From: Escherichia coli
Lineage (GTDB): Bacteria > Pseudomonadota > Gammaproteobacteria > Enterobacterales > Enterobacteriaceae
Length of the DNA: 64,000 bases
Assembly: GCF_051903065.1 (NCBI RefSeq)
Contig: NZ_CP178438.1
Direction: 5' to 3' (one strand)
Shown here: positions 52,784 through 60,805 of the stretch, piece after piece
How positions within the stretch are numbered: position 1 is the first letter of the stretch
Layout of the letters: each line of letters starts with the position of its first letter
The notes under the pieces: model-generated
What the model saw: only the letters and a program-made list of their open reading frames with translations
What the model was told of the DNA's origin: nothing
Databases searched by the model: none
Program-made: the position numbers and the translations under genes

Positions 52784-52806
52784 TCACTACATGTGTTAAA
52801 TATTTA

Positions 52807-52840
52807 AACGGGCGTATAACACGCCCGTTGTTTTATTTAT
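52807..52840 (+). terminator. Rho-independent terminator of icd
   Basis: aacgggcgt-ataac-acgcccgtt hairpin followed by gttttatttat. Confidence 0.85.
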
Positions 52841-52885
52841 GTGGATATTATTAATAGCATATCGAGCATATTTATATAAAACCTA

Positions 52886-53209
52886 TTACTTGAGCCCATA
52901 TGGGCATATTTTTATAATGCAACTCTTATGCAAACATTTATTTGTTATTTCGCTTTCTCCTGGAGGACACTCTTGACTGCTTTTAAGTAAACTCCATAAA
53001 TTCTTGTTGAATGGTGCAATGTTATAAATAGTAATAGGATATTCTTTATCCTTAAGGATAATACCAGGCTTAACCGGTGTAAATATACTTCCAGGAGGAA
53101 GAAATATAGTAGATTGATACCAGATAATCATTTTCATATCACCCCATATGGCTGAAAAAGATATGCCGCATGTAGGTTGAATTACCGTGTCAATTACTAC
53201 CCACTTCAT
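52886..53209 (-). CDS. iraM: Anti-adaptor protein IraM (stabilises RpoS)
   Basis: 107-aa [26 protein letters not shown]... in AT-rich DNA; matches IraM/YcgW as recalled. Confidence 0.88.
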
Positions 53210-53675
53210 TTGTTATGTCTTATCCCACGGTATTTAATATAGTTCATTTGGATGTTCATTTCTTTATTTTGCATATGAGTATATTACCCCTTCAAAAAAT
53301 AAATTAATTAAAACGATTGCTTATATAAAACAAAATTTAAAGCAAGGAATCTCAATGGATGTTAAACAAAATGAGATTTAGTGAAAACAATAAATTATTC
53401 ACTTCGTTTTAGATTTGTTTAGCTATAATGTTATACATTCAAATGACTGACCATCCTGTAATTAAAACATAGCCTTTATGCTACTTTGTGCCAATTTGCT
53501 AAACATTATGGTTGCCTTTTTATATAACGATAATAATGAATATAAGCATGACATGAGAATAAGGTTTCAATTTTTGAGTTATATAGGAAAGGTTTAACCT
53601 GTTCCTGGCTAAAATACATATAACTGGATGATGACTAAACCAAAACACATGTGCGTTAAGTATTGAAACGGGCGT

Positions 53676-53706
53676 ATGGCACGCCCGTTGTTTTTATAAA
53701 TATATT
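53676..53706 (+). terminator. Orphan terminator-like hairpin, near-copy of the icd terminator
   Basis: aacgggcgt-atggc-acgcccgtt hairpin followed by gttttta; no annotated plus-strand gene upstream. Confidence 0.55.
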
Positions 53707-53904
53707 AACCGTTATAAAATAACGTATAGAAAGTCAAGTGATCACATTTCAAATGTCAATTTGATAGTATTGGCCTGGTGATTATTTATGGGTAGCAATA
53801 AAAGGACAGTATTTATCATCCATAGGGATAGTCTCTGTACTTTTATTCCCATTATGCTAATGCCTTACTGAATTATGAAGCATTTCTTAAGCATCCAACT
53901 TTAG

Positions 53905-54309
53905 CTAGATTAATGGTTTATTATTTTCTACATCTTCAATATATAAAAGCGTATTATCAATGGCGTAGTAACTGCGTTTGTTATGATTAACATCAGTAAC
54001 CCAACGGAAAACGCCCGCGTCTGCCAGTATTGAACAGTATTCCCGAAATGTAGATTTTCCGCAAATATGAAGCAATGCGGCCTCTTTTATTTTAGCAGGG
54101 TTCTTGGTCGTACTAACTTTTAACAGGTTCCTGGTTCCTCTTAATAACAAAACCGTGTCATCGTGAGTAATAATTCTGATGTTATCCGTAGCCAGATAAT
54201 AAATGTAATGTGCAATACGGTGATGTTTTAATTCTGAATAAAACCAGGAGAAGTTTTGCTCTTTTCTCACTTGCTCAAACATCTTTTGAAAAACAACGAC
54301 CTGATCCAT
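53905..54309 (-). CDS. ycgX: DUF1398 protein YcgX
   Basis: 134-aa ORF MDQVVVFQKMFEQVRKEQNF... in AT-rich context. Confidence 0.8.
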   Translation of the reverse strand: MDQVVVFQKMFEQVRKEQNFSWFYSELKHHRIAHYIYYLATDNIRIITHDDTVLLLRGTRNLLKVSTTKNPAKIKEAALLHICGKSTFREYCSILADAGVFRWVTDVNHNKRSYYAIDNTLLYIEDVENNKPLI

Positions 54310-57836: not shown

Positions 57837-57948
57837 CTTTTAATTATTAAGTATAAGTTTATAGAAAACTCATTCATCTTATTTTTGTCTGTCGCTTTAG
57901 ACTATACACAGCATAATTTTATTGGGTTAATATTTCTACGAGGCTGAC

Positions 57949-58197
57949 ATGAATAATTCAATCCCAGAGAGATTTATTTTTCAATGTGCTTTGTTTAAAA
58001 ATCTCGAGAGGGAGGTGTTCATGACGCATGGGTATGTTGATAGTCATATTATTGATCAGGCTTTACGCTTGCGTTTAAAAGATGAAACCAGTGTGATTCT
58101 TTCTGATCTCTATCTGCAAATCTTGCAGTACATTGAAATGCATAAGACTACACTAACGGATATCATTATTAATGACAGGGAATCCGTGCTCTCTTAG
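57949..58197 (+). CDS. ymgC: Small protein YmgC
   Basis: 82-aa ORF, last gene of ycgZ-ymgA-ariR-ymgC cluster. Confidence 0.85.
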   Translation: MNNSIPERFIFQCALFKNLEREVFMTHGYVDSHIIDQALRLRLKDETSVILSDLYLQILQYIEMHKTTLTDIIINDRESVLS

Positions 58198-58532
58198 AAC
58201 TTGAGTAAGGTTATAGAATAAACATCAGCTGTATCATCATGCTGGTGCAAAGTGAGCATTTCAGGCGTTATGCTTTCTTAATATATCCGCAATATCAGGG
58301 GGCAAACAGGAATGGAGAGCGCTCGTTTTCCATTCTTGACGCCTGATATCCCACCTAATTTGTTTAACTCTGCCTACATTGTGCTCAATAATTAATAGGT
58401 TAGATGAAGATGGAGAAAATTTTATCTTCGGCGTGGATATTTCTTATGCTCTCTACCATGCTCTCTGTAGACGCCAGCGCGAGCGAATGAACGTCATTTT
58501 CATGTATTAAACCCTTTGTTCGGGACAAGCGA

Positions 58533-60056
58533 ATGCGCAATACACTCATACCCATCCTCGTTGCGATATGCTTGTTTATAACCGGTGTCGCTATTTTGAA
58601 CATCCAGCTCTGGTATTCCGCAAAAGCAGAGTACCTGGCGGGAGCAAGATATGCCGCCAACAATATCAATCATATACTTGAAGAAGCGTCACAGGCGACT
58701 CAAACAGCGGTTAACATTGCCGGGAAGGAATGCGACCTCGAGGAGCAATATCAGCTTGGCACTGAAGCAGCTCTGAAACCTCACCTGCGCACAATCATCA
58801 TTCTCAAACAGGGAACGGTCTGGTGTACATCCTTACCGGGGAATCGGGTCCTGCTGTCTCGTATTCCTGTTTTCCCGGACAGTAATTTACTGTTGGCTCC
58901 GGCAATCGACACCGTTAATAGATTACCTATCCTGCTCTATCAGAGCCAATTTGCAGATACGCGCATTTTGGTTACGATAAGTGATCAGCATATTCGCGGG
59001 GCGCTTAATGTACCCTTGAAAGGGGTAAGGTATGTATTACGCGTGGCGGATGACATTATTGGACCTACGGGTGATGTGATGACGCTTAATGGACATTATC
59101 CCTATACCGAGAAGGTTCACTCCACAAAATATCATTTCACTATTATCTTTAACTCGCCGCCACTCTTTAGCTTCTACAGACTTATCGATAAAGGCTTTGG
59201 GATTTTGATCTTTATTCTGTTAATCGCCTGCGCCGCTGCCTTCCTGCTAGATAGGTATTTCAATAAAAGCGCAACGCCTGAAGAGATCCTGCGGCGGGCT
59301 ATAAATAATGGGGAGATCGTCCCTTTTTACCAACCAGTGGTGAATGGTCGGGAAGGGACATTGCGGGGAGTTGAGGTGTTAGCCCGCTGGAAACAACCTC
59401 ACGGTGGATATATTTCACCCGCGGCATTTATTCCACTTGCTGAAAAATCCGGATTAATCGTTCCGCTTACGCAAAGCCTGATGAATCAGGTTGCCAGACA
59501 GATGAACGCTATCGCGAGTAAATTGCCGGAAGGTTTTCATATTGGAATTAATTTTAGCGCCTCGCATATTATTTCGCCGACGTTTGTCGACGAGTGCTTA
59601 AATTACCGTGACAGTTTTACCCGCCGCGATTTAAACCTCGTTCTGGAAGTTACCGAGCGTGAGCCATTAAATGTTGATGAAAGTCTGGTTCAGCGGTTGA
59701 ACATTCTGCATGAAAATGGTTTTGTCATCGCGCTGGATGATTTCGGTACTGGCTACTCAGGGCTTTCTTATCTGCATGACCTGCATATTGATTATATCAA
59801 AATTGATCACAGTTTCGTTGGTCGCGTCAACGCAGACCCAGAATCAACCCGAATTCTGGATTGTGTATTGGATCTGGCGCGTAAACTTTCGATCAGTATC
59901 GTCGCTGAAGGTGTCGAAACGAAAGAACAACTTGATTATCTGAACCAAAATAATATCACATTTCAGCAGGGTTATTATTTCTATAAACCTGTTACATACA
60001 TCGACCTGGTCAAAATTATCCTTTCTAAACCGAAGGTGAAGGTTGTGGTTGAGTGA
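58533..60056 (+). CDS. pdeG: Membrane-anchored c-di-GMP phosphodiesterase PdeG (YcgG), EAL domain with intact motifs
   Basis: 507-aa ORF; N-terminal TM plus periplasmic sensor region, C-terminal EAL domain with EVLARW, DDFGTGYSGL, AEGVET. Confidence 0.92.
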   Translation: MRNTLIPILVAICLFITGVAILNIQLWYSAKAEYLAGARYAANNINHILEEASQATQTAVNIAGKECDLEEQYQLGTEAALKPHLRTIIILKQGTVWCTSLPGNRVLLSRIPVFPDSNLLLAPAIDTVNRLPILLYQSQFADTRILVTISDQHIRGALNVPLKGVRYVLRVADDIIGPTGDVMTLNGHYPYTEKVHSTKYHFTIIFNSPPLFSFYRLIDKGFGILIFILLIACAAAFLLDRYFNKSATPEEILRRAINNGEIVPFYQPVVNGREGTLRGVEVLARWKQPHGGYISPAAFIPLAEKSGLIVPLTQSLMNQVARQMNAIASKLPEGFHIGINFSASHIISPTFVDECLNYRDSFTRRDLNLVLEVTEREPLNVDESLVQRLNILHENGFVIALDDFGTGYSGLSYLHDLHIDYIKIDHSFVGRVNADPESTRILDCVLDLARKLSISIVAEGVETKEQLDYLNQNNITFQQGYYFYKPVTYIDLVKIILSKPKVKVVVE

Positions 60057-60187
60057 AAATCGATCAGTAAGGCCATAGTGCGGTGTAATTATAGACAGCT
60101 AATTAGCTCGTTGCCTCTTGTTACTATTGTTCATTATTTTATTTGCTATAATTGTTTGAAAGTTTTGACAGGATTGCCATTAGTAGC

Positions 60188-60406
60188 ATGAACAATAGTA
60201 ATAATCTGGATTATTTCACTCTCTATATCATCTTTTCCATTGCATTTATGCTGATCACTCTCCTGGTCATCCTTATTGCAAAACCCAGTACCGGGCTGGG
60301 AGAAGTGCTTGTGACGATAAATTTGCTTAATGCCCTTGTTTGGCTGGCGATCAATCTGGTTAATCGATTAAGGGAAAGACTCGTCAGCCACAGGGATCAG
60401 CAATAA
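60188..60406 (+). CDS. ymgF: Small inner-membrane protein YmgF
   Basis: ATG at 60188 gives 72 aa (MNNSNNLDYFTLYIIFSIAFMLITLLVIL...), two hydrophobic helices. Confidence 0.85.
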   Translation: MNNSNNLDYFTLYIIFSIAFMLITLLVILIAKPSTGLGEVLVTINLLNALVWLAINLVNRLRERLVSHRDQQ

Positions 60407-60805
60407 TCTTTCAGTTTCTCACTGTCAGTATGCGGCTGAATGGGGTGCTGACAGTGAACGCCTGGATCATTGAAGGAAAGGAATTATTGCGCAAATAGTT
60501 GTCAACCCTGGTGTTATCACAGTTGTTTTTATATATCATTGAAATAATTTCTATGGCAACTATCAATGATAGTGATGTCGAAGAGTTATTTGTTAAACAA
60601 AATCGTCACCTCAAAGTGATCAATGTCATGAAAATAAGGTGAAAAATGATAATGCCGACTTATTTATCATTTATATATTGTAGCTGTTTATCTATTTAAA
60701 TTTCTTGTGCTTTTGTTTTTGTCTTTACCCTCCGTTTTGGTAATCTGAACTCATAGGTTATTTGACCAGGAATGTTTGTTAATCCAATGAATGGATGGTT
60801 AATCT

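Follow-up and report, generated by a model that had tools for sequence, protein, structure and literature searches.

The DNA between icd and the min genes of Escherichia coli is known from several lines of work. It carries the BluF/BluR-Ymg-Rcs pathway (Tschowri 2009, 2012; Kettles 2019), in which BluF antagonises BluR, ycgZ-ymgABC is derepressed and Rcs is activated, with MarA and sigma-S also acting at the ycgZ promoter (PMC3509220, PMC6900184). It encodes a member of the IraM/IraL/RssC anti-adaptors (Bougdour 2008; Hryckowian 2014), its icd end is the attachment region of the e14/phage 21 integration module, and it resembles the H-NS xenogeneic or ‘transposon capture’ regions (Navarre, Lucchini, Oshima 2006; Cooper 2024). 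A phage-associated horizontal transfer of the entire region has already been suggested (Tschowri et al. 2012, PMC3509220). Here we describe this region in a 64,000-nucleotide stretch of E. coli DNA (contig NZ_CP178438.1; the whole stretch is called the window below), in which the block of 8,022 nucleotides (nt) that directly follows icd, at positions 52784–60805, had been read in an earlier note as an environmental-sensing islet assembled by horizontal acquisition next to a prophage hotspot. In our judgement the block is very probably the known icd-to-min variable region of E. coli without e14, and a mosaic of AT-rich units that were gained and lost independently. The genes, what they do and the idea that phages brought them have all appeared in print; the finding is thus an already known one and carries no new biology.

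Genes were called from the RefSeq annotation of a 100% identical genome (E. coli strain 23CRST027) and from K-12 MG1655. Positions 1–52783 hold ordinary core genes, from rne to icd. The order 3′ of icd is iraM, ymgK, ymgL, ycgX, bluR, bluF, ycgZ, ymgA, ariR, ymgC, pdeG, ymgF and then ycgH, with the same genes, order and strands as the K-12 icdC-iraM-...-ymgF-ycgH region (b1160–b1168, b4520, b4491). All proteins of the block are intact and 83–100% identical to those of K-12; the genes that the earlier note had named, from iraM to ymgF and then an autotransporter, are all present by RefSeq and Pfam, and its intergenic coordinates are correct. In MG1655, the prophage e14 (15 kb) and the icdC remnant stand between icd and iraM; the present strain lacks e14, so that an intact icd runs directly into the block; here, unlike in MG1655, ycgH is split by IS903B. 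The BluF/BluR-Ymg-Rcs pathway has the published parts, all of them intact, and shows no functional difference. Among 5,426 complete E. coli genomes the block was matched in 5,416, with at least 80% of it covered in 4,773.

The low GC content reported in the earlier note was borne out, at 39.6% for the block against 51.5% for positions 1–52783, within which every window of 8,022 nt lies between 50.3% and 53.4%. Windows of 500 nt with less than 40% GC make up 35 of 76 in the block and 0 of 523 in the core. Genes of the block range from 0.31 to 0.48 in GC, the mildest being bluR (0.480) and pdeG (0.454), against a mean of 0.518 (sd 0.023, minimum 0.466) for the 49 core genes. The atypical codon usage that had been proposed was likewise found: by an index of the codon adaptation type, built leave-one-out from the core genes of the window, each of the 13 block genes falls 1.8 SD or more under the core mean and seven fall under the core minimum, and the rare codons AGA/AGG/AUA/CUA are about six-fold more frequent (4.32 per 100 codons in the block, 0.73 in the core). 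The right end at 60805 is arbitrary, as low GC runs on through ycgH to minE (41.2% over 12.7 kb, excluding the insertion sequence). The earlier note had also listed four AT-rich spacers; this is correct for 56677–56989 and 60407–60805, whereas 54310–54529 (45.0% GC) and 58198–58532 (41.2%) fall inside the range of core spacers (0.31–0.58). The longest and most AT-rich gap is that between iraM and ycgX (53210–53904, 25–31% GC), and the bluR-bluF spacer (55262–55464) has 29% GC; neither was among the four of the earlier note.

Additional small genes had been expected in the same four spacers. Two do exist in the block, ymgK and ymgL, but both lie in the iraM-ycgX gap. Candidate open reading frames (ORFs) of 20–57 codons occur in 54310–54529, 56677–56989, 58198–58532 and 60407–60805, where no gene is annotated in K-12; homology to Escherichia whittamii stops at 60463, and the E. 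coli copies are about 97% identical, too close for a coding test. No RNA family was found by Rfam over 50000–64000 at E ≤ 1, and promoter-like sites are not enriched (22, against 28.2 ± 5.3 in shuffles).

As in a genomic island, the composition is atypical and the distribution among relatives is patchy, but no mobility gene (integrase, transposase or conjugation gene) lies inside 52784–60805. The left end abuts the icd attachment site, while a 43-nt repeat brackets only iraM and ymgK and none encloses the whole block. The strong form of the published suggestion (Tschowri 2012) takes the whole 8 kb as one genomic island or prophage remnant that arrived in a single event at the icd attachment site. 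In its favour, a proven phage attachment site adjoins the block, homologues of iraM and ycgX occur in phages and GC is uniformly low, yet the parts differ in frequency: the iraM segment is present in 3,938 of the 5,426 genomes (72.6%) and the bluR-ariR module in 5,045 (93%), against the 5,416 that hold some part of the block. Furthermore, pdeG-ymgF occurs with minEDC and without the rest in E. whittamii, and the nearest neighbours of the bluR-bluF cassette, which is spread over about 20 genera, include no phage genes. A second icd 3′ remnant, such as an old attR, was sought throughout the block and especially in the GC-normal ycgX-bluR spacer; only chance matches were found, and there is no right-hand att copy. 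We therefore regard a single event as highly improbable. Of the two conditions that the earlier note had given as refuting its reading, GC and codon usage like those of the flanking genes and universal conservation in the genus, neither holds, but the block consists of at least four units with differing distributions and histories and is not one islet.

The features at the left end are as follows.

51533–52783, plus strand: icd (isocitrate dehydrogenase), the left core flank (RefSeq annotation).
52792–52834, plus strand: direct-repeat copy 1, the left bracket, with the icd terminator hairpin at 52807–52829 (repeat comparison).
52886–53209, minus strand: iraM, anti-adaptor of 107 amino acids (93.5% amino acid identity to K-12 IraM; RefSeq annotation).
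53462–53506, minus strand: ymgK, small protein of 14 amino acids (annotated here and in K-12; epitope-tag detection in PMC6001520).
53652–53694, plus strand: direct-repeat copy 2, the right bracket, with a terminator-like hairpin at 53667–53689 (repeat comparison).
53742–53852, minus strand: ymgL, small protein of 36 amino acids (annotated here and in K-12; 83% amino acid identity to K-12).
53905–54309, minus strand: ycgX, a DUF1398 gene of lambdoid-phage type (Pfam DUF1398, E = 3.6e-47).

The last ~165 nt of icd and its terminator are the attachment region of lambdoid phages of the e14 and phage 21 type. Twenty-eight lambdoid phage records, phage 21 among them, carry the icd 3′ end and terminator (window 52620–52836, 91–98% identity), and this phage-borne homology stops at 52836, the end of repeat copy 1. 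With e14 in K-12 and a sitABCD-bearing insertion in a B2-like strain, these records uphold the claim of a prophage hotspot. The attachment region is the same as that of the e14/phage 21 module; the window itself contains no prophage, and iraM-ymgK is the only possible relic. The last 165 nt of icd here (52619–52783) differ at 13–14 positions from both K-12 copies, the e14-borne one and icdC, and are thus a third allele of a segment exchanged with phages.

The two copies of the 43-nt direct repeat are 88% identical, are spaced 860 nt apart and flank iraM and ymgK. In L004 (NZ_CP051663.1), a B2-like uropathogenic strain without iraM, a single hairpin stands at the junction, with the stop codon of an icd remnant on its left and, on its right, the sequence found 3′ of copy 2 in the window. 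By this comparison of sequences, the iraM-ymgK segment is a clean indel delimited by the repeat. Most likely it is the leftover of a phage, or of a phage-mediated insertion, at the attachment site in the icd terminator. An IraM homologue (65% amino acid and 72% nucleotide identity) is encoded immediately 3′ of stx2B in Stx2 phages, and the segment is unusually divergent among E. coli genomes, half of its matches being at 90–95% identity. For both iraM-ymgK and ymgL-ycgX, phage homologues go together with a location at the attachment site; iraM may be a domesticated moron from an icd-integrating phage, in which case the 43-nt repeat would mark the old attL/attR limits.

Some observations weigh against this origin of iraM. 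The repeat may also stem from a deletion between its copies in the strains that lack iraM, perhaps a recurrent one, and no single phage record combines the icd segment with an iraM homologue. Phage matches hit iraM alone, ycgX alone or the first ~50 nt 3′ of icd, and none spans 80% of 52784–54530; nor is there a residual integrase or structural phage gene in iraM-ymgK or ymgL-ycgX. The junction was readable in L004 alone among the iraM-less strains, that of a second (L090) containing Ns. L004 also shows the sitABCD-bearing insertion just 5′ of its icd 3′ remnant (icd itself lies beyond the stretch fetched), has lost the 5′ half of pdeG and has ymgL annotated as a hypothetical protein of 41 amino acids.

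IraM sequesters RssB under PhoP control and thereby stabilises RpoS. The protein encoded here belongs by sequence to the described anti-adaptors and falls in no Pfam family; it is set apart from the published account by the absence of e14, the repeat-bounded segment and the stx2B-adjacent phage homologue. iraM is known to vary across E. coli strains and to have a homologue, iraL, and it has been placed ‘on the e14 prophage’ (PMC4045071). It lies outside e14, since the present strain has iraM without e14 and the K-12 annotation puts iraM beyond the e14 attR.

To the right of the second repeat copy, ycgX is an accessory gene of the lambda DUF1398 type: its product shares 44% amino acid identity with that of a lambda ORF at nt 47066–47452, 3′ of Rz. 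It is up-regulated in an hha/ydgT mutant (PMC3686432). YmgK and YmgL are both experimentally detected small proteins (PMC6001520).

The next unit comprises the blue-light genes.

54530–55261, minus strand: bluR, MerR/MlrA-like repressor of the ycgZ promoter (Pfam MerR_1, MlrA_helical, MlrA_C; 99.6% to K-12; function from PMC3509220).
55465–56676, minus strand: bluF, BLUF-EAL blue-light anti-repressor of BluR (Pfam BLUF and EAL; 98% to K-12).
56677–56989, no strand assigned: divergent bluF/ycgZ control region (31.9% GC; H-NS site in PMC3946193).
56990–57226, plus strand: ycgZ, small regulator of the YmgB family (RefSeq, Pfam).
57269–57541, plus strand: ymgA, connector acting on RcsC (RefSeq; function from PMC6900184).
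57570–57836, plus strand: ariR (ymgB), regulator of biofilm and acid resistance (Pfam YmgB, E = 6.8e-26).
57949–58197, plus strand: ymgC, last gene of the ycgZ operon (RefSeq).

The module is complete, with a BLUF-EAL protein and an MlrA-like MerR protein beside the divergent ycgZ-ymgA-ariR, at 94–99.6% identity to the K-12 proteins. The region between bluF and ycgZ is known to hold the BluR operator, a sigma-S/sigma-70 promoter and a MarA box (PMC3509220, PMC6900184). In K-12 the unit acts as a self-contained cassette in which blue light and cold activate BluF and BluF pulls BluR off the ycgZ promoter; the Ymg proteins then activate the Rcs phosphorelay, with curli going down and colanic acid up (PMC3509220, PMC6900184). 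Near-identity to K-12 suggests that light- and cold-dependent release of BluR and Rcs activation also take place in the present strain.

The wider distribution of the cassette was surveyed by a scan with BluF that took one genome per species and kept 80 loci; Escherichia and Shigella are not represented among these, although E. coli must match. The E. coli arrangement, bluR-bluF with divergent ycgZ-(ymgA)-ariR, was found in 41 of the 80 loci across about 20 genera, among them Citrobacter, Klebsiella, Enterobacter, Kluyvera, Leclercia, Atlantibacter, Franconibacter, Kosakonia, Phytobacter, Buttiauxella, Lelliottia, Cedecea and Pseudescherichia, with single loci in Pectobacterium, Pantoea and Erwinia. 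In none of the 41 do icd, ycgX, pdeG, ymgF, ycgH, ymgD/G or minE lie within 10 kb of the cassette, and the only hint of an iraM-like gene is a weak match (27–28%) in two Leclercia loci. When the flanking ORFs were clustered, 42 loci gave 27 distinct neighbourhoods on the left and 27 on the right, none of them shared with E. coli; in ten genera the nearest neighbours have housekeeping or metabolic roles (ychF, carB and gdhA, for example). Across these loci the cassette is always lower in GC than its 6-kb flanks (41 of 41, by 1–9 points, mean −5.1), and its GC follows that of the flanks (r = 0.76). These at least 27 contexts over about 20 genera, with the cassette always below flank GC, are what the survey adds to the published pathway. 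The cassette appears to have moved between many chromosomal sites in the Enterobacteriaceae.

These data bear on a second alternative, in which the block is ancestral and vertically inherited, its AT-richness and poor codon adaptation arising from low expression, from the small size of the genes and from selection for regulation through H-NS, and not from horizontal transfer. The block is nearly universal in E. coli, no mobility genes adjoin the cassette, the losses seen within E. coli are secondary deletions at IS1, and the tracking of host GC, with a deficit at all 41 loci, implies long residence and a maintained bias. Descent in place is nonetheless difficult to reconcile with 27 neighbourhoods among 42 loci, none of them that of E. 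coli, or with the lack of the cassette at the corresponding E. whittamii site. Salmonella and Yersinia are missing from the 80 loci kept, and the cassette has been reported absent from both genera (PMC3509220). Elsewhere in the block, iraM and ycgX have phage homologues and a direct repeat bounds the iraM indel. We consider purely vertical descent unlikely, if less so than arrival in one event.

A mosaic with a mobile cassette must itself be set against several points. Phylogenetically, the 41 loci do not count as independent, and rearrangement of the flanks, in place of movement of the cassette, may account for some of the differences in context. There is no integrase or transposase among the 20 nearest neighbours of the cassette in ten other genera, and in E. 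coli no integrase, transposase or flanking repeat beyond chance marks bluR-ymgC. The absence of the cassette at the level of the genus is read from one E. whittamii contig and from the identity gap in BluF, whose relatives, in a database of 5.8 billion proteins, drop from at least 94% (E. coli) straight to 76% (Citrobacter). The nearest BluF outside E. coli are the Citrobacter proteins, at 74–76% identity. One BluF-like protein of 84% identity (P0001) was set aside as an aberrant call of 574 amino acids, from a fragmentary assembly whose gene order is that of E. coli, and not a divergent orthologue. A megablast comparison of a whole Citrobacter locus with E. coli gave nothing useful, and a literature search on bluF and pdeG in E. 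albertii or E. fergusonii found nothing relevant.

The constant GC deficit, together with the tracking of flank GC, points to a maintained AT bias and not to a fresh import; the AT bias of the cassette persists across hosts and is no sign of recent arrival. One possibility is that the cassette is a portable sensory unit, able to move among the chromosomes of enterobacteria with no recognisable mobility gene, and that its deficit of about five points is a selected feature, serving H-NS and temperature gating of the operon, and not a foreign leftover. Taken jointly, a portable cassette with a selected AT bias and an iraM of phage descent form a tentative picture, to which we give somewhat less than an even chance.

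Other features of the cassette loci can be noted here. The ymgA gene evolves fast (34–47% identity in other genera, where detectable), and outside E. coli the cassette loci that have ymgC all belong to the Citrobacter freundii group or to Kluyvera. In two E. coli strains (NZ_CP091044.1 and NZ_CM136169.1) bluR-bluF-ycgZ-ymgA is deleted up to an IS1A, leaving the last 54–66 nt of ariR, and each has a second IS1A within ycgH. A gene for a LuxR/GerE-type regulator of ~180 amino acids, which may be an extra member, adjoins the cassette in Citrobacter, Kluyvera and Klebsiella and not in E. coli (loci L005, 8150–8698; L006, 7905–8453; L036, 7968–8498; L032, 12240–12791). In an uncultured Erwinia (L066) and in Erwinia persicina (L071), a BLUF-EAL gene without bluR lies ~5–10 kb from icd; this may be chance, or it may point to an old link with the surroundings of icd.

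The remaining features, to the right of the cassette, run past the block to the end of the window.

58533–60056, plus strand: pdeG, phosphodiesterase of cyclic di-GMP (c-di-GMP) with CSS-motif and EAL domains (Pfam).
60188–60406, plus strand: ymgF, small division-associated membrane protein (RefSeq).
60857–61393, plus strand: 5′ fragment of the ycgH autotransporter pseudogene (37.4% GC).
61395–62451, plus strand: IS903B, 1,057 bp, within ycgH, with inverted repeats at its termini and a perfect 9-bp target duplication, GTTCAAGTC, at 61386–61394 and 62452–62460.
62454–64000, plus strand: 3′ part of ycgH, which continues past the window end (RefSeq annotation).

The history of pdeG-ymgF appears to be different again. 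One contig (Logan ERR1949276), assigned to E. whittamii by exact matches of its MinC, YcgM and YeeN proteins, has the order yeeN-like gene, two small ORFs, DUF302 gene, pdeG, ymgF, ymgD, ymgG and minEDC, so that DUF302, CxxCxxCC and yeeN-like genes replace ymgC/ariR 5′ of pdeG. Homology to the window starts at 58417, 115 nt 5′ of pdeG, and the locus has no counterpart of 60464–64434, the ycgH interval. Nucleotide identity between the two species is 81% for pdeG and 95% for minE. The position of pdeG-ymgF beside the min genes in E. whittamii implies that everything from iraM to ymgC, and also ycgH, represents E. coli-specific additions or differences at this site, and pdeG-ymgF would be older in the genus and linked to ymgD-minEDC. 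Full-length relatives of PdeG (507 amino acids) were found at 89% identity in E. whittamii, at 80%, at 72–76% in Citrobacter and at 63–69% in Enterobacter and Kluyvera. The 2012 paper, in contrast, gave ycgG (pdeG) as absent from other enterics (PMC3509220), where we find full-length orthologues at 63–76%. On two enterobacterial contigs (L088 and L089) the gene for a 75%-identical PdeG orthologue lies divergently beside one for a GAPES1-GGDEF diguanylate cyclase, an arrangement that E. coli does not show. At the far right, ycgH is a decaying autotransporter gene hit by IS903B, a simple insertion of later date that has a 9-bp duplication of its own.

H-NS offers a common thread for these units. 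Genomic SELEX (systematic evolution of ligands by exponential enrichment) placed H-NS sites in the spacers iraM-ycgX, bluR-bluF, bluF-ycgZ, ymgC-ycgG (pdeG) and ymgF-ycgH (Shimada et al., PMC3946193). The four spacers that the earlier note had put forward as candidates for H-NS silencing include three of these (bluF-ycgZ, ymgC-pdeG and ymgF-ycgH), while the fourth, ycgX-bluR, is not listed and is not AT-rich. In the core of the window, the comR-bhsA spacer (26530–26769, 31% GC) is the sole strongly AT-rich one, and it too is an H-NS site in that study. These sites tell less directly for the mosaic, as they come from the literature on K-12 in vitro and not from the present strain. Matches to an H-NS motif, with up to two mismatches, are denser in the block (2.1 per kb) than in the core (1.0 per kb), which is weak evidence. 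H-NS control of iraM is reportedly the subject of a 2012 report by Battesti (cited in PMC4288151), to go by its title.

H-NS on the AT-rich spacers would keep expression low until specific signals override it, as the K-12 literature suggests, and AT-rich DNA may also draw insertion sequences and the deletions that they mediate. Elements of the IS5 family, including IS903, prefer H-NS-bound DNA (Cooper 2024, PMC11335895). Other E. coli strains have IS1, IS903B, IS200C, IS3 or IS256 inserted in the block, and these insertions, like IS903B here, fit H-NS-bound DNA as a transposition hotspot. The region shares AT-richness, atypical codon usage and IS5-family and IS1 insertions with the described xenogeneic and transposon capture regions, its H-NS sites being those of the literature.

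In conclusion, the block offers a textbook example of stress, biofilm and second-messenger regulators housed in AT-rich, H-NS-bound accessory DNA beside a phage integration site. Two published statements are corrected: iraM is not part of e14, and pdeG does occur in other enteric bacteria. The iraM-ymgK indel with its bounding repeat, the many contexts and persistent AT bias of the cassette and the linkage of pdeG-ymgF to the min genes in E. whittamii could help to date the wiring of RpoS, Rcs and c-di-GMP in Escherichia. If iraM is indeed a phage relic, a central regulator of RpoS stability in E. coli would be of phage origin.

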